IMG/VR virus record: IMGVR_UViG_2698536392_000006
Reading direction: 5' to 3' (one strand)
Length of the DNA stretch: 5,236 nucleotides
From: a virus
Lineage: Duplodnaviria > Heunggongvirae > Uroviricota > Caudoviricetes
The number at the start of each line of letters is the position of its first letter. The first letter of the stretch is position 1. A program made the translations under genes and the position numbers. The notes beneath the pieces are model-generated. The model had not been told where the DNA came from and made no database searches. It saw only the letters and a program-made list of their open reading frames with translations. Positions 1 through 5,236 of this stretch are shown here, piece by piece.

Positions 1-225
1 AATAGCAGAGAGCTTCGTGAAAACGATAAAGCGTGACTACATCAGTATCATGCCCAAACCAGACGGGTTAACGGCAGCAAAGAACCTTGCAGAGGCGTTC
101 GAGCATTATAACGAATGGCATCCGCATAGTGCGCTGGGTTATCGCTCGCCACGGGAATATCTGCGGCAGCGGGCTTGTAATGGGTTAAGTGATAACAGAT
201 GTCTGGAAATATAGGGGCAAATCCA
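1..225 (+). mobile_element. IS2 (IS3 family) 3' portion, partial at window edge; right terminus (IRR) ends ...GGGGCAAATCCA at 225
   Basis: The encoded C-terminus (...[31 protein letters not shown]) matches my recollection of IS2 InsD (OrfB). The terminal sequence TGTCTGGAAATATAGGGGCAAATCCA matches the IS2 right end as I recall it. Nucleotides 1-225 are about 96% identical to the reverse complement of 4907-5131. Confidence 0.85.
2..214 (+). CDS. insD: IS2 transposase InsD (OrfB), C-terminal fragment; 5' end lies outside the window
   Basis: The frame is open from the window edge ([13 protein letters not shown]...) to TAG at 212-214. The integrase-core C-terminal motif [18 protein letters not shown] is typical of IS3-family OrfB. 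The ORF track start at 17 is an internal GTG. Confidence 0.85.
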
Positions 226-348
226 CCCGACCAGCTCGTCAGGCGTCAGATTTTCGTTGACCATAATCTGCTGTAGACGGTGAACAATATCCATCAGCTT
301 GATATTTTTAGTGTTATGTTGCGGTATCTCGCCTGGTATTCCGTGCAT
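226..348 (-). pseudogene. 5' remnant (41 codons, MHGIPGEIPQHNTKNIKLMDIVHRLQQIMVNENLTPDELVG...) of an unknown gene truncated by the left IS2
   Basis: ATG at 348-346 overlaps the TAA stop of the upstream DUF3850-like gene (TAATG), the same coupling pattern seen elsewhere in this operon. The frame runs uninterrupted into the IS2 terminus at 225, giving the chimeric track ORF 139..360. Confidence 0.4.
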
Positions 349-752
349 TATCCAAGCCACCCGTTTTGCTTTGCACTCTCAATCTGTTCATCTGAATAGT
401 TCCATGCTCCATCCGTGGCAACCATTGCCCCGCCAGACATCCCCGTCTCTGGTTCATACATAACAGCAAGGCCGAGCTGATGCATAATTTCATGATTAAT
501 TCTGAATACCAGACCACGCTCACTAAGTTCTTTCCAGTTCACAATCTCATATGCGCTTGTATTAAGCAGCTCAATACTTAGCAAGACATAATCTTCCAGC
601 CAGTCTGACAGGTCAGTAACATCTGTTATCCGGGCTTCAACCTTTCGCCCCGTAAACACACCCTGCACCCATTCATGCAAAATCAGCGTGTCCCCGCGCT
701 CATAATTACGGTCATTTTTCCGAAACTCTGCACGTTTCTTTCCTTCCAGCAC
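348..752 (-). CDS. DUF3850/ASCH-like (PUA-fold) protein with an uncharacterised C-terminal extension; the 5' end appears frameshifted, so the annotated GTG start is probably not the native start
   Basis: The translation GKKRAEFRKNDRNYERGDTLILHEW...GRKVEARITDV fits the ASCH/DUF3850 pattern as I recall it. The same frame continues upstream of the GTG as HEVKLHAKYFDLV, the expected N-terminal motif, with no in-frame ATG. An SD (GGAG) plus ATG lies at 799 in the +1 frame. Confidence 0.55.
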   Translation of the reverse strand: MLEGKKRAEFRKNDRNYERGDTLILHEWVQGVFTGRKVEARITDVTDLSDWLEDYVLLSIELLNTSAYEIVNWKELSERGLVFRINHEIMHQLGLAVMYEPETGMSGGAMVATDGAWNYSDEQIESAKQNGWLG

Positions 753-3084
753 AAGGTCGAAATATTTTGCGTGCAGCTTTACCTCGTGAATTTTGCCATG
801 ATGTCCACTCCATTACTGTTGAGAATCCCGGCCACTCATCAGTGACCGGATACGTGAATTTTTTCCCGTCATAATTTACGGTCGCGCCACGCGCCAGCGC
901 CTCAAGTTCCCATCGCTGAGGCCAGATGCCGTTCTGAGCAAGGTCAACACGGATACGGGTAATTTGCATACGCTCCGACCGGGTCAGCCTGGCCGATGGC
1001 GCTATTTCATTCGGTTTTAACGGGCTTCCGTTTCTTTGCTGACGGTTTGGTGTTCTCAGGCCGTGTTTTAATGCGCCCCTGAGCGCCCTCACGACCTCCG
1101 GGTCATTCCATTCGATAACACCGTCATCAACCAGATTAAGCACGGCTGCGGCGTGCTCAGAAGGTGTGGGAGCCGGTAACGAAGTATCACCACCGGTGAG
1201 CTTTCCACAGTTATTGACAGGACTCCGAGGCGCGGCGATGCCGCTTTTTAAAGTCAAAGGCTCCACGACCGGAACTTTCGGCACAATGCGCCAGTCCGTC
1301 GTTCTGGTGATATGAATATGACGCGCGCCGAGATGCGGCGCGTAAATGCCGACCACTCTCTCGACTTCTTCCTCGTACTCGTTAACTTCATCCGACGGGC
1401 TACGGGCGACTCTGACAGTCTGGCAATCGCGCGGAACATTTGCCCCACCCTGCGCACTGATATACAACGCAAAATCGCCACTGTCTGCGGCAGTGCGTGC
1501 AGCCTCGACGCGTTCGTCAAACTCATCAGCAATGCTGACGCCGCGAGGCAATTTGCGTAGTTCACGGTAAGCCCCCATTGTCGGCAGACCAACCGTTTTA
1601 AATTGCGGGATGCGCCACGTTGACGCCCATGCAGTAACAGCCGCGGCAGTATCTTTCAGAGGTCTGCCGGTATCGTTATCGAGCTGACCATCCAGTGCAT
1701 AGCCGTCGATGTTTTTTGAGATGTATTTCGCGATATACCCCGCAGCACCGCCCCGATTAAGGTGTTTTGCCTGAAAACGGTTTCGCGCAGCTCCTCTTTC
1801 GTCGCCATCCTCTTTGAGCGCATAGCGACGCATGATTTCGATAATCTGGTTACGCTGGCGCGGATTACAAAAAAGCATCATATGCCAGTGCGGCGTTCCG
1901 TCGTGGTGTGGCTCGACGACACGCAAACCGTAGACCTGTAAATCATTATCCTTGAATGCCGTGCGCATCAGGCTCCAGATACGGCAGAGATAACGCTGCG
2001 CATCCTTTGGATTAAATGCCTCATCGTTCCAGCCGTGATTTAGCTGGACGGTTTTACTTTCGCCTTTTCCAACCTGACGTGTCTGGTGATACTTTGACGG
2101 CGCGGTCAGCGTGATAAACATCCCCACATCACCCTCTGCTGCGGCGTAACGCTCAATACCGGCAATGGTGTTCATCAGCTCCATCCGGCGAATTTCAGGA
2201 TTAGAAATACTGCCCATCACCTTACTGATAAGGTCGATGCGCTCGCCGGTTTCCCTGTTTTCGAGATCACACGATTTAAGAAATTCCAGATTTGCCTGGC
2301 GGCGTGCACGCACATCACGAATGGCATGTTTACTGGCATAAGGAGAACGGTCTTTATTGACCTCCCCGACAGCAATCAGTAACGCCTCATGCCAGCGCAT
2401 ACGCTGGCCTTTAAGCTGACTAATCCACCACTCATCGTTAAACAGACGGGCAATGGCAGAATATGCCTGCCTCGTGGTCATCTGCCCTTTACGGTATTTT
2501 TTCCAGTAGAGAGGGGAAATATTGAAAGCTCGTGCAGCGCCAGCAACATGACCATACAGATGCGCCTGTGCCTCATCCGTAAACAGCGATTCTTTCTCGC
2601 CATGCGCATCCATCCAGGCATCGCAGAGTTCCTCATACATCATGAAAAGCTGTGATGAGATACGGGCGGCAAACTTTTTCAGCTCCTTGTCATTCATTCC
2701 AGGCAAACGCGCATAATGGTCACGCTCTGCCAGAAACAGCAACGACGCGTCGGTGTTCATTTCATGGCGCTGATTCACACGCTCAATGCGCGGCCATAAA
2801 CGACGCTGAAAAGTGGATGTGAGGAAATAAAACCCGTGCACCGGGCTTTTATTGCGCCGGATGTAGTCATAGCGTGAAGTAAACAGCGAGCGCAAAAAAT
2901 AAGGCAGGCGGTTAATCGTGGATAAAACACCTTGCACCTGACGCATCTCGTCACGTGTAAGAGGTCTTTCGCGCCCGACAGCCTCGCGTGGCGCGTTCCA
3001 TGCATAAGCACCAGTAAACGCCTTACCGGTGCCTGCGGCAAATGCTGACGGAGGGACAAAACGCCCTGAGGCTTTAACGGCCAT
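712..3084 (-). CDS. A: Phage P2 gpA-like replication initiation protein (rolling-circle HUH endonuclease, Rep superfamily)
   Basis: HUH motif (H-W-H) is encoded at 1882-1890. The paired catalytic tyrosines in GYIAKYISK (Y-x3-Y) are encoded at 1735-1737 and 1723-1725, as in phiX174 gpA and P2 A. Size is about 790 aa from ATG 3084 (the track's 804 aa starts at an upstream TTG). Position at the end of a B...A operon matches P2. The 3' end at 712 may be artificially extended by the frameshift at 791-794. Confidence 0.85.
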   Translation of the reverse strand: MAVKASGRFVPPSAFAAGTGKAFTGAYAWNAPREAVGRERPLTRDEMRQVQGVLSTINRLPYFLRSLFTSRYDYIRRNKSPVHGFYFLTSTFQRRLWPRIERVNQRHEMNTDASLLFLAERDHYARLPGMNDKELKKFAARISSQLFMMYEELCDAWMDAHGEKESLFTDEAQAHLYGHVAGAARAFNISPLYWKKYRKGQMTTRQAYSAIARLFNDEWWISQLKGQRMRWHEALLIAVGEVNKDRSPYASKHAIRDVRARRQANLEFLKSCDLENRETGERIDLISKVMGSISNPEIRRMELMNTIAGIERYAAAEGDVGMFITLTAPSKYHQTRQVGKGESKTVQLNHGWNDEAFNPKDAQRYLCRIWSLMRTAFKDNDLQVYGLRVVEPHHDGTPHWHMMLFCNPRQRNQIIEIMRRYALKEDGDERGAARNRFQAKHLNRGGAAGYIAKYISKNIDGYALDGQLDNDTGRPLKDTAAAVTAWASTWRIPQFKTVGLPTMGAYRELRKLPRGVSIADEFDERVEAARTAADSGDFALYISAQGGANVPRDCQTVRVARSPSDEVNEYEEEVERVVGIYAPHLGARHIHITRTTDWRIVPKVPVVEPLTLKSGIAAPRSPVNNCGKLTGGDTSLPAPTPSEHAAAVLNLVDDGVIEWNDPEVVRALRGALKHGLRTPNRQQRNGSPLKPNEIAPSARLTRSERMQITRIRVDLAQNGIWPQRWELEALARGATVNYDGKKFTYPVTDEWPGFSTVMEWTSWQNSRGKAARKIFRPCAGRKETCRVSEK
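1211..1240 (-). other. Candidate P2-type ori / gpA nick region inside the A coding sequence
   Basis: The minus strand reads CATCGCCGCGCCTCGGAGTCCTGTCAATAA. P2 ori is known to lie within gene A, and this sequence resembles my recollection of the P2 nick region. This is unverified. Confidence 0.3.
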
Positions 3085-3349
3085 GTGAGCCAAAAGCCTT
3101 TGAACAACGCCTGCTGAGTTGCTCAACCTGCGCGTTTAAATCGGCAAAAGATTTTGCGCTTCCGGTCAGAATATCGTGATGCATCAGGCCGGAAACGAGC
3201 TGGCTTAATTTCGGGTAATAACCAACCACCGCCAGCCATTCCTGACCGGCGTTTTTACCGCTTTCCGCTCTCTTTTTCTCGTGGAGAATAAACTGAAAGC
3301 TGTCACTGGTAACGACATAACGTTCGCCAATTTCAATACGAATACTCAT
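3074..3349 (-). CDS. Hypothetical protein, 91 aa (P2 orf83-like by position)
   Basis: The ATG start at 3349 overlaps the upstream TGA (ATGA). The 3' end overlaps the A start by 11 nt. Assignment is by synteny only. Confidence 0.55.
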   Translation of the reverse strand: MSIRIEIGERYVVTSDSFQFILHEKKRAESGKNAGQEWLAVVGYYPKLSQLVSGLMHHDILTGSAKSFADLNAQVEQLSRRCSKAFGSHGR

Positions 3350-3570
3350 GCCGTTCTCCGGTAATGTTTGTTTTTTGCTTCAAAGACTGACTGACAGGAA
3401 ACACAACGCGTGGCTGACGGATAAGCCGCACGACGGGCAGCAGGTATTGGCGCGTCACACTCTTCGCAAACCAGCGCAGAAGCACCGCAATGTTTTACCC
3501 TTGCCGCGTTAATCTGGCGCTCCAGTAATTCAGCCTGTTGTTCCTGAATAAAATCTACGTTGTCCGGCAT
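3346..3570 (-). CDS. TraR/DksA-family C4 zinc-finger protein, 74 aa (P2 orf82-like)
   Basis: The translation contains C-x2-C-x17-C-x2-C (CEEC...17 aa...CVSC), the canonical DksA/TraR zinc-finger spacing. The start overlaps the upstream stop as TAATG. Confidence 0.8.
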   Translation of the reverse strand: MPDNVDFIQEQQAELLERQINAARVKHCGASALVCEECDAPIPAARRAAYPSATRCVSCQSVFEAKNKHYRRTA

Positions 3571-3872
3571 TACCAGTTCCTTTTGTCGTTAAGGTTTTTA
3601 AATTCATCAGCGCAATAGCTGGCGATTTCTGTCGTTAATTTCGTCAGTTCATCCACGGAGGAGATTTGCTTGTGAAACACAGCGCGTTTAACAAGTAAAT
3701 TGACCACATCAGACAGGAGGTTTAATTCGTTCTGATAAATCGCGATAACAGACTCAGTTATTTCGCGTTTTTCTTTATCAAGACCAAGTTGAATAAGAGA
3801 CAAATCGCCATTTTTCATAACGGCGATTTTTAAGGCGTTATTCAATAATACAACTGAACGAGAACAGGACAT
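3570..3872 (-). CDS. Hypothetical protein, 100 aa (P2 orf81-like by position); AT-rich
   Basis: ATG at 3872 overlaps the upstream TGA (TGATG); the track's TTG start at 3875 is one codon further upstream. GC is about 38% by hand count, against about 54% in A. Confidence 0.55.
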   Translation of the reverse strand: MSCSRSVVLLNNALKIAVMKNGDLSLIQLGLDKEKREITESVIAIYQNELNLLSDVVNLLVKRAVFHKQISSVDELTKLTTEIASYCADEFKNLNDKRNW

Positions 3873-4096
3873 CAAAGCATCTCCCCGCGAGACAATCCGA
3901 TATTGTGAAATTTTTCCGACTCCTGACTGAGCAGCTCGACTATCTCCACGCGGGATAACTCCGCCTTTGTGATGTGGCGAATCATGGCATCAAGATGAGA
4001 AGAAAAGCGCGTCGCAGCGTCGGCCTGTGCTTCGGTTCTGGCCTGTTGCAGCAGTAATGCGTATATACCGCACTGATTTTCAGAAACTGTATGCAT
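3872..4096 (-). CDS. Hypothetical protein, 74 aa (P2 orf80-like by position)
   Basis: ATG at 4096 is preceded by GGAG with 6-nt spacing. Assignment is by synteny only. Confidence 0.55.
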
Positions 4097-4159
4097 AACT
4101 TTCTCCAGGCAAAAAGAAGCCCCGCACGATTAAGTGCGTTAAAAACTCTGGTTAATTAC

Positions 4160-4660
4160 TTAATGCAGATATTGCTCTGGTTTTACCGACGTCAGAATTG
4201 TCGGTACATACTCAAACAGGCTGAATAATTCACGTAATGCACGAAATAAAGCATCACGCCAGTAACATGACTCTTCATTAATTCGCCAGTATGGCTGGTT
4301 GAATTCTTTTTCAGTCAGTCCGGCATGCATAAATAAAGTACGACGCTGACTGACTGTTAAAAAACTAATATATGCATACTCACTTGCGCCAACCTGACGG
4401 CGTTTTGAGAATGCCCCACGCAATTCATCAATTGCACAAACCAGCCGTTCACGTTCGACGTCGTTCATTTCTTCAAAACGCATCGTTGCGTGACGTTGTT
4501 TTAACTGCGCATGAAAGCAAACTGTTAGCCGTTCGAGCTCCATCATCTGATTATAATAATCACATGTATCCTGCCAGCGAGGAACGGCAAGATGCTTACC
4601 AATTATCCGGCGCATAGCTGCTGGCTGTTTTTCAACGAGATTGAGCGTCATCACTGTCAT
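4160..4660 (-). CDS. B: P2 gpB-like replication protein (helicase-loader function in P2), 166 aa
   Basis: Assignment is by size (166 aa, as I recall for P2 B) and position in the operon two to five genes upstream of A. The ATG start overlaps the stop of the preceding small ORF (ATGA). I recognise no diagnostic motif. Confidence 0.55.
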   Translation of the reverse strand: MTVMTLNLVEKQPAAMRRIIGKHLAVPRWQDTCDYYNQMMELERLTVCFHAQLKQRHATMRFEEMNDVERERLVCAIDELRGAFSKRRQVGASEYAYISFLTVSQRRTLFMHAGLTEKEFNQPYWRINEESCYWRDALFRALRELFSLFEYVPTILTSVKPEQYLH

Positions 4661-4827
4661 TTCCAGGCCCTCCGGCTTTTCAGAAAGGTCAGAGCCTTTT
4701 TTAACGGACTCTGTTTTTTGGTGCGGATAATGATTCCCTTACGCCCCTTACCGTGGGTGATGGTGAAGTCAATCGCCCTTGGGCTTTCGTTACGCAATAA
4801 CTGAGCAATACAACGAGGTTCCGGCAT
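4657..4827 (-). CDS. Small hypothetical protein, 56 aa (P2 orf78-like by position)
   Basis: ATG at 4827 is preceded by a strong SD, AGGAGGAG (4830-4837). The track's 82-aa version starts at a TTG abutting the IS2 end and is probably an artefactual extension. Confidence 0.5.
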   Translation of the reverse strand: MPEPRCIAQLLRNESPRAIDFTITHGKGRKGIIIRTKKQSPLKKALTFLKSRRAWK

Positions 4828-4829
4828 AA

Positions 4830-4837
4830 CTCCTCCT
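4830..4837 (-). promoter_or_regulatory. Shine-Dalgarno sequence (AGGAGGAG) for the orf78-like gene
   Basis: The purine-rich anti-SD complement lies immediately upstream of ATG 4827. Confidence 0.6.
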
Positions 4838-4906
4838 GAAACAGAGCCGGTTTTTAGCCATGTCCGGCACATGGTCTTGTGGTAAGATCGAATCGCCAAA
4901 AACAAC

Positions 4907-5236
4907 TGGATTTGCCCCTATATTTCCAGACACCTGTTATCACTTAACCCATTACTGGCTTGCTGCCGTAGATATTCCCGTGGCGAGCGATAACCCAGTG
5001 CACTATGCGGATACCATTCGTTATAATGCTCGAACGCCTCTGCAAGGTTCTTTGCTGCCGTTAACCCGTCTGGTTTGGGCATGATACTGATGTAGTCACG
5101 CTTTATCGTTTTCACGAAGCTCTCTGCTATTCCGTTACTCTCCGGACTCCGCACCGCCGTGTTCTTCGGTTCAAGTCCCAACATCCGGGCGAACTGGCGT
5201 GTTTCATTAGTCCGGTAGCATGAACCATTATCCGTC
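4907..5236 (-). mobile_element. IS2 variant, 3' portion, partial at window edge; right terminus (IRR) abuts the prophage DNA at 4907
   Basis: The plus strand from 4907 reads TGGATTTGCCCCTATATTTCCAGACA, the reverse complement of the IS2 right end. It shows about 8 mismatches in 225 bp against the left copy. Confidence 0.85.
4918..5235 (-). CDS. insD: IS2 transposase InsD (OrfB) variant, C-terminal fragment; 5' end lies outside the window
   Basis: The frame is open from the window edge ([40 protein letters not shown]...) to a stop at 4918. It shows amino-acid differences from the left copy (H to Y, R to Q, C to S). Confidence 0.85.

Follow-up and report, generated by a model that had tools for sequence, protein, structure and literature searches.

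Organization of the locus

The DNA analyzed here (the window, 5236 nt of the IMG/VR record IMGVR_UViG_2698536392_000006) carries on its minus strand the genes orf78-B-orf80-orf81-orf82-orf83-A-DUF3850 and a truncated small gene, with a copy of IS2 at each end (Table 1). The Pfam families recognized in its ORFs (DUF2732, DUF5405 twice, zf-dskA_traR, and Phage_GPA) follow the order of P2. The window shares 96-97% nucleotide identity with P2, Wphi, and ~70 other Peduovirus genomes, being 96-97.5% across 91-98% of a 4.7-kb segment for P2, Wphi, L-413C, and others, and two STEC chromosomes match it at 100%. By sequence similarity, the window is the early operon of a P2-like prophage in an Escherichia coli STEC chromosome.

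The left boundary between phage and IS2 (...GGGGCAAATCCA/CCCGACC) was placed by comparison with an intact relative (L005). This IS2 copy cuts off the small gene downstream of DUF3850, leaving a phage-derived part of ~41 of the 68 ancestral codons (348-226), with the remainder of the ORF provided by IS2; the intact 68-aa homologue is found at 2919-3125 of L005. The second copy (4907-5236 and beyond) interrupts the prophage 79 nt before the orf78 ATG, between orf78 and the cox/Pe side, and the annotation of the source genome marks cox as frameshifted. In Peduovirus early operons, cox comes first and transcription starts at Pe, whereas in the window IS2 intervenes. The operon belongs to the family by descent, yet it is cut off from its promoter. 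With two flanking IS2 copies and a 1-nt deletion at the A/DUF3850 junction, it represents a decaying relic and, since the prophage is interrupted by IS2 and degraded, a present-day function of the operon should not be assumed.

Table 1. Genes, junctions, and other features of the window
Feature	Positions	Strand	Basis or remark
IS2 copy, 3' end (IRR end)	1-225	+	PGAP: IS3-like element IS2 transposase
Truncated small gene, ATG 348-346	139-348	-	ORF; runs into IS2
DUF3850 stop (350-348)/next ATG (348-346), TAATG, 1-nt overlap	346-350	-	Read from sequence
DUF3850/ASCH gene (P2 orf91 homologue), disrupted	348-799	-	Ancestral ATG 799-797 out of frame
Replication initiator gene A (Phage_GPA)	712-3084	-	ORF and Pfam; pseudogene in PGAP
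A/DUF3850 junction, abnormal	779-801	-	Alignment with P2 and Wphi
orf83/A overlap, 11 nt, ATGGCCGTTAA	3074-3084	-	Read from sequence
orf83 (DUF5405)	3074-3349	-	ORF, P2 record, and Pfam
orf82 stop/orf83 start, ATGA, 4-nt overlap	3346-3349	-	Read from sequence; P2 record
orf82, TraR/DksA-type zinc-finger protein	3346-3570	-	Pfam
orf81 stop/orf82 start, TAATG, 1-nt overlap	3568-3572	-	Read from sequence
orf81 (DUF5405; paralogue of orf83)	3570-3872	-	ORF and Pfam
orf80 stop/orf81 start, TGATG, 1-nt overlap	3870-3874	-	Read from sequence
orf80 (DUF2732)	3872-4096	-	ORF and Pfam
B/orf80 gap, 63 nt, sole intercistronic gap	4097-4159	-	Read from sequence
Two-hairpin element, CGCAC-TTAATC-GTGCG then GGGCTTCTTTTTGCC	4104-4140	-	Terminator scan, covariance model, P2/186 annotation
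Replication gene B	4160-4660	-	ORF and P2 record
orf78 stop/B start, ATGA, 4-nt overlap	4657-4660	-	TGATG (-1) in Kosakonia L019
orf78, 56 aa	4657-4827	-	ATG preceded by AGGAGG
Second IS2 copy, IRR end	4907-5236	-	PGAP and boundary mapping; co-directional with the operon

Stop-start junctions and start codons

The sequence-only reading had listed six overlapping stop-start motifs, and all of them are found exactly where it placed them on the minus strand, five with a distance of -1 or -4 and one of -11, all co-directional. The 63-bp gap with a short hairpin that it described between B and orf80 is also present at its full length, the hairpin having 5 bp. However, its statement that every gene junction overlaps holds for the six listed motifs only, because it left out A/DUF3850 (~779-801), which is frameshifted here and is the one abnormal junction of the operon. 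In P2 and Wphi this junction is ATGA and in the closest intact relatives a 22-nt overlap. The alignment places TCA (801-799) where P2 has the TGA stop, and the A5 run of the relatives is reduced to A4 at 791-794 by a 1-nt deletion. As a result of this deletion, the frame of A extends to 712, the DUF3850 ATG is lost, and the ancestral TAA (781-779) that ended A in its 768-aa form is now out of frame. The frameshift explains why the A ORF has 790 aa in the window, whereas the P2 protein has 761 aa and that of the closest relatives 768 aa. The possible starts left to DUF3850 are ATT 791, chosen by PGAP, or GTG 752, and in the latter form the Pfam match begins at position 16 of the 77 in the profile. 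The deletion variant, present in only 4 of 318 E. coli genomes, is lineage-specific. Programmed frameshifting at the A run was considered and rejected, given that A4/A5 is not a slippery heptamer and that the deletion occurs in one IS2-bearing lineage only.

The ATG starts preferred in the sequence-only reading over the longer TTG- or GTG-initiated ORFs agree with the curated P2 record (AF063097) and with the PGAP annotation of the source genome. With the exception of A (-3.2 kcal/mol), each chosen ATG, that of orf78 included, has an SD-like motif of about -6 to -10 kcal/mol in front of it; at B, orf81, orf82, orf83, and the truncated gene, this motif (-5.9 to -10.0 kcal/mol) falls within the 3' end of the preceding gene. 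Also, P2 Orf82 made from its annotated start is an active TraR homologue, which binds RNA polymerase (PMC9239242). If instead the true starts were the upstream TTG or GTG codons of the longest ORFs, the overlaps would be longer and the ATG motifs coincidental. Such in-frame codons do exist upstream of orf78 (4905), orf81 (3875), A (3126 and 3093), and the truncated gene (360), but their SD scores reach just -2 to -5.6 kcal/mol, with the exception of TTG 3875, which adjoins the ATG of orf81 and has the same SD (-8.1 kcal/mol). Moreover, TTG 4905 lies within 1 nt of the IS2 end, no start-capable codon precedes the ATG following the DUF2732 gene in 186-type relatives, the ATG of A and its -11 overlap are retained in Kosakonia, and both annotations use the ATGs, making these alternative starts highly improbable.

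A conserved element in the B/orf80 gap

In most relatives, the gap upstream of the DUF2732 gene measures 61-70 nt. The hairpin in the window is weak, with a 5-bp stem (CGCAC/GTGCG) in the terminator scan and a folding z-score of -0.52, and the U-rich run begins 4 nt past the stem, as the loop of a second small hairpin. The counterparts of the two-hairpin element are the 'putative rho-independent terminator' annotated in P2 and tR1 of 186. A covariance model (R1) matches the window at 4104-4132 (17.5 bits, E 3e-6), and each related locus has a single strong match to it at the expected place; the element is conserved and single-copy, with some compensatory changes. An Rfam scan of the whole window, including the gap, matched no known RNA family at E <= 1. 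This element would probably attenuate transcription into the orf80-to-A module; less likely, its two conserved hairpins may do more than a plain terminator does. An 11-bp inverted repeat inside orf81 is present in P2 and absent from the Kosakonia homologue, so it was not counted as part of the feature.

Chance expectation and conservation of the tight junctions

The overlap motif by itself is weak evidence, being common by chance: when the stop triplets in all frames of this strand are counted, 62 of 190 share 1 or 4 nt with an ATG (p0 = 0.33), and five overlapping junctions out of eight then have a probability of 0.08. As this count is not significant, the argument was moved to comparative data, for which related loci were sought with an alignment of the TraR-like orf82 protein (an alignment of DUF2732 homologues was dropped as a seed, being too divergent). 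In 93 related loci, the start-to-stop distances peak at -4 (141), -1 (86), and +1 (60), while the distances next to these have counts of 5-18. Of the 34 distinct sequences of the junction following the DUF2732 gene, 27 show a distance of -1, some as TAATG and others as TGATG, and 41 of the 58 distinct junctions upstream of A fall within -11 to +1, the gene upstream of A being of the DUF5405, PAPS reductase, methylase, or TraR-like type. In the Kosakonia relative (L019), the junctions are still tight with different sequences, as for orf83/A, where the -11 overlap reads ATGGGCGTTGA. The -1 junction after DUF3850 recurs in vB_YpM_46 and E. coli Z1323PEC0014, and Kosakonia and Pectobacterium relatives have 3 nt between orf81 and orf82. 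Tight junctions persist over ~90 loci while their sequences change, but some Peduoviridae are loose before A, with 132 nt in vB_YenM_42.18, 218 nt in PSP3 (as annotated), and 15 nt in ST79. What departs from chance is that the ATGs open conserved ORFs and that tight junctions survive in diverged relatives.

These data bear on whether the overlaps simply follow from genome compaction and from mutation of start and stop codons, with each cistron relying on its own SD and no selection for coupling. ATGA, TAATG, and TGATG are easily formed because stop and start codons have letters in common, as reflected in the 33% of stop triplets mentioned above, and five of the six downstream ATGs have their own SD-like motif. 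Overlaps are also about as frequent in the late operons of P2 (9 of 21, compared with 6 of 8 in the early operon; Fisher p = 0.21), and overlapping genes make up ~15% of the pairs in most groups of prokaryotes (PMC6728339). However, compaction alone sits poorly with a tightness that is kept while the sequence shifts (TAATG to TGATG, ATGA to TGATG, and TAA to TGA within the -11 overlap) and with a start of A that in most lineages abuts the stop of non-homologous upstream genes. Furthermore, A has no SD in the P2 group, and the 186 record reports that its translation depends on that of orf84. On balance, a mere by-product seems unlikely.

Translational coupling in the operon

We consider it probable that the locus is a P2-type early operon with the compact layout of its family, expressed from one polycistronic mRNA with termination-reinitiation and an attenuator in the gap, and surviving here as a decaying relic. 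In this mechanism, orf78-B and orf80-orf81-orf82-orf83-A-DUF3850 would be carried on a single polycistronic mRNA in which every downstream AUG overlaps or abuts the preceding stop codon, so that a ribosome ending one cistron could restart on the next. Termination-reinitiation would be helped by the SD-like motifs located within the 3' end of the preceding gene, as at the listed overlaps except orf83/A, and Rho-dependent polarity would also be limited by leaving no untranslated stretch.

Coupling at these junctions is plausible because tight junctions persist across relatives and because of the note on orf84 and A in the 186 record, and it is already known in kind: strict coupling was measured at 13 of 14 overlapping pairs from E. 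coli and Haloferax (PMC6728339). For P2 and 186, no direct coupling experiments were found in the open-access literature beyond GenBank feature notes. We infer actual coupling of translation from the observed overlaps, SD motifs, layout identity with P2, and junction persistence; at the same time, most downstream cistrons have their own SD and could therefore be initiated independently. A stronger proposal would be that obligatory termination-reinitiation is a family-wide device of Peduoviridae, setting a very low dosage of A tied to translation of the early mRNA and aiding the classical cis-action of A. It would draw on the prevalence of tight junctions before A and on the A start without SD in the P2 group. 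However, about half of the A starts across relatives have an SD-like motif, confining this lack to the P2 group, and the proposal is doubtful.

The overlaps are already known, as the long-annotated and ordinary layout of the P2 early replication operon. They support the ATG starts of the P2 and PGAP annotations and fit the known compact, probably translationally coupled early operons of P2 and 186, with little significance beyond annotation quality. What is added here is corrective, namely that the motif is common by chance, that the omitted junction is frameshifted, and that the prophage is degraded.

Comparison with known systems

The P2 early operon (Pe: cox-orf78-B-orf80-orf81-orf82-orf83-A-orf91; AF063097/NC_001895) matches the window gene for gene and in order, at 96.8% nucleotide identity, its annotated junction distances (-4, +63, -1, -1, -4, and -11) are identical to those of the window, and its record also places a putative terminator between B and orf80. 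Unlike P2, the window has its cox and Pe severed by IS2, and A is followed by the longer DUF3850 form of Wphi and YpM_46-type phages, with TCA and the frameshifting 1-nt deletion in place of the ATGA of A/orf91.

In phage 186 (dhr-tR1-CP79-CP80-CP81-CP83-orf84-A; NC_001317), a 66-nt gap with the terminator tR1, homologous to the element in the window, precedes the DUF2732 gene, and unbroken -1/-4 overlaps run from this gene to A. According to a GenBank note, translation of the A protein appears to require that orf84 be translated to its end. Nonetheless, the A protein of 186 is only ~38% identical to that of the window, other genes lie between the TraR-like gene and A, and the overlap at A is -4 instead of -11. 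A further terminator, tM1, is placed by the 186 record within the 5' end of A, whereas the terminator scan gave no terminator-like site near 2950-3084 in the window.

The pairs with ATGA/TGATG overlaps for which Huber et al. 2019 (PMC6728339) described coupling by termination-reinitiation are cellular genes tested by experiment, and orf83/A differs from those pairs by its 11-nt overlap without an SD. The pairs are co-directional with 4-nt or 1-nt overlaps and an SD in the upstream gene, as in the window.

Gene order and start codons

The 5,236-nt window matches the E. coli 2012C-4227 and 2013C-4830 chromosomes at 100% identity. Its positions 226-4906 share 96-97.5% identity with the early regions of P2, Wphi, L-413C, and some 70 further Peduovirus genomes. 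All of its phage genes are carried by the minus strand.

Features of the window, with the junctions of the Kosakonia relative
Feature	Coordinates	Strand	Motif or remark	Kosakonia
IS2 end, right	4907-5236	-	IRR end toward phage segment	
orf78	4827-4657	-		
orf78/B junction	4657-4660	-	ATGA	TGATG
B	4660-4160	-		
B-orf80 gap	4097-4159		63 nt	
gap element	4104-4140	-	two hairpins, U-rich	
orf80 (DUF2732)	4096-3872	-		
orf80/orf81 junction	3870-3874	-	TGATG	TAATG
orf81 (DUF5405)	3872-3570	-		
inverted repeat in orf81	3802-3829	-	AAATCGCCGTT-ATGAAA-AATGGCGATTT	
orf81/orf82 junction	3568-3572	-	TAATG	3-nt gap
orf82 (TraR-like zinc finger)	3570-3346	-		
orf82/orf83 junction	3346-3349	-	ATGA	ATGA
orf83 (DUF5405)	3349-3074	-		
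orf83/A junction	3074-3084	-	11-nt overlap, ATGGCCGTTAA	ATGGGCGTTGA, still 11-nt overlap
A (Phage_GPA)	3084-712	-		
A/DUF3850 junction	779-801		frameshifted	
DUF3850/ASCH gene		-	between A and truncated gene	
DUF3850/truncated gene junction	346-350	-	TAATG	
small truncated gene	348-139	-	last in order	
IS2 end, left	1-225	+	IRR end toward phage segment	

The preference of the sequence-only reading for ATG starts over longer TTG-initiated ORFs is well supported by annotation and by Shine-Dalgarno (SD) scores. The chosen ATGs agree with the P2 and PGAP annotations, and an SD-like motif of -5.9 to -10.3 kcal/mol lies upstream of each except that of A; for the TTG/GTG codons farther upstream, scores run from -2.0 to -5.6 kcal/mol, the exception being the orf81 TTG at 3875, which adjoins the ATG and uses the same SD (-8.1 kcal/mol). 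Also, TTG 4905 is 1 nt from an IS2 end. Moreover, P2 Orf82, a TraR homologue that needs N-terminal residues for its function, is active when made from its annotated start (PMC9239242).

Both orf81 and orf83 match Pfam DUF5405, being paralogues on either side of the TraR-like orf82. The coding sequence of orf81 also holds a perfect 11-bp inverted repeat, flagged as terminator-like, of which P2 has a copy and the Kosakonia homologue has none.

Junction motifs and the A/DUF3850 frameshift

All six motifs quoted in the sequence-only reading are present on the minus strand exactly where it placed them, as is the 5-bp hairpin in the gap between B and orf80, but its statement that every junction overlaps left out A/DUF3850, which is frameshifted here. 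In P2 and Wphi, this junction is GGACATGATGGCAAAAATTC, an ATGA overlap, and A has 761 aa, whereas TCA takes the place of TGA in the closest intact relatives (vB_YpM_46 and E. coli Z1323PEC0014), giving an A of 768 aa and a 22-nt overlap with the DUF3850 ATG. The window combines TCA with the loss of one A from an A5 run (A4 at 791-794), and thus the A frame, now of 790 aa, extends to 712, and an ORF of only 6 codons starts at the DUF3850 ATG (799). In the PGAP annotation, A is a pseudogene and DUF3850 begins at ATT 791; for the GTG-752 form of the latter, the Pfam match starts at profile position 16. The deletion occurs in just 4 of the 318 E. coli genomes having this junction. Because these are the four STEC assemblies ranked top against the window, which also keep the right-hand IS2 copy, it looks like a real lineage-specific lesion and not a one-off assembly error.

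The overlap motifs alone are not beyond chance. An ATGA requires merely an A 5' of TGA, and of the 190 stop triplets on the sense strand, all frames counted, 62 share 1 or 4 nt with an ATG; at p0 = 0.33, five such junctions out of eight have P = 0.08. In P2, overlaps occur at 6/8 early-operon junctions versus 9/21 in the late operons, a difference that is not significant (Fisher p = 0.21). The non-random part of the pattern is its context and conservation.

Conservation in related phages

The comparison covered 93 related loci, comprising phage records and one prophage per bacterial species found with an alignment of the TraR-like orf82, and was agnostic to start choice, measuring how far each upstream stop lies from the closest in-frame start. 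Conservation of the overlaps, proposed earlier as a check, was borne out, tight junctions persisting across this set: distances peak at -4 (n=141), -1 (n=86), and +1 (n=60; negative values denote overlap), with 5-18 at each adjacent distance. Of 34 distinct junction sequences after the DUF2732 gene, 27 show a 1-nt overlap, as either TAATG or TGATG, and the Kosakonia relative, with proteins 60-86% identical to those of P2, keeps tight junctions with changed sequences. In 41/58 distinct junctions, A begins between -11 and +1 relative to the stop before it, whether the preceding gene encodes a DUF5405, PAPS-reductase-like, DNA methylase, or TraR-like protein; vB_YenM_42.18, PSP3 as annotated, and ST79 are exceptions. 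Tight junctions, that of A above all, are therefore conserved family-wide despite sequence and gene turnover.

Where A comes immediately after the TraR-like gene, a +1 spacing recurs (stop, 1 nt, TTG/GTG start; e.g. TGAGTTGGC; loci L023, L025, L027, L030, L031, L033, L037, L045, and L060), a tight, non-overlapping variant with non-ATG starts.

The intercistronic element

The conserved element in the sole intercistronic gap has in the window a 5-bp stem, CGCAC-TTAATC-GTGCG, then GGGCTTCTTTTT; the P2 group has the same stem followed by GGGCTTCTTTTTGCC, and most relatives have GGCG-TAAACC-CGCC followed by GGGCATTCTTTTGCCC. A gap of 61-70 nt precedes the DUF2732 gene in most relatives, and there each phage (L007-L092; P2-like and 186-like prophages of many Enterobacterales genera) has a single copy. 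Its two small helices pair in 92-96%, with a few compensatory changes in helix 1 (GGTG/CACC, GACG/CGTC) and only G-C to G-U changes in helix 2. With a covariance model derived from 186-type copies, each 186-type locus gives a single strong hit in the correct place (50-64 bits; 35.8 for vB_YenM_06.16-2), and the P2 group, with window 4104-4132 and the annotated P2 terminator among its copies, scores 17 bits (E ~3e-6). No Rfam family matches it. As a terminator it is atypical, with its 5-bp stem, a U run offset by 4 nt, and a folding z-score of -0.52. The best available reading is its annotated role, a partial terminator dividing the operon.

Prophage decay

An inverted pair of IS2 ends, about 94% identical over 199 nt, flanks the 4.68-kb early segment. 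The arrangement resembles a composite transposon, yet the two copies look to have inserted independently. The right-hand copy, 79 nt upstream of the orf78 ATG, cuts the operon off from the cox/Pe side of the prophage, and the left-hand one truncates the small gene after DUF3850. In the source genome, the prophage adjoins pflA, and cox (L001 13078-13433, outside the window) is annotated as frameshifted. The frameshifted cox, the two insertions, and the A/DUF3850 frameshift together indicate a defective prophage, and the operon is within an IS2-disrupted, degrading element.

In this P2 sublineage (intact relative L005, 7705-7911), cox and orf78 are separated by a 198-aa gene and by a 68-aa gene of opposite orientation, so the early transcript must run antisense through the small gene before reaching orf78. 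The counterpart site in the window is broken at 4906/4907.

Proposed translational coupling and comparison with P2 and 186

Tight translational coupling, as the sequence-only reading proposed, is plausible and known in kind, although in this operon it is inferred. Of 14 overlapping pairs tested in E. coli and Haloferax, 13 proved strictly coupled, usually aided by an SD within the upstream gene (PMC6728339). The A start of the P2 group lacks an SD (-3.2 kcal/mol), which fits a reliance on orf83 translation; this does not hold throughout, an SD-like motif being present at about half of the A starts in relatives. Alternatively, cistrons other than A may initiate independently, since most have their own SD. 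Any coupling that this architecture provides would come from the phage ancestor, and selection in this host probably no longer maintains it.

The P2 and 186 records already show this architecture, and the overlaps, though real, are ordinary. For P2, the curated record AF063097 gives the same junctions (orf78/B -4, B-orf80 +63, orf80/81 -1, orf81/82 -1, orf82/83 -4, orf83/A -11, and A/orf91 -4), with distances identical in Wphi, and labels the B-orf80 gap 'putative rho-independent terminator', the element named tR1 in the 186 record. The coupling mechanism proposed is the textbook one, with indirect experimental support in 186, whose GenBank record states at an ATGA overlap that 'translation to end of orf84 appears necessary for translation of A protein'.
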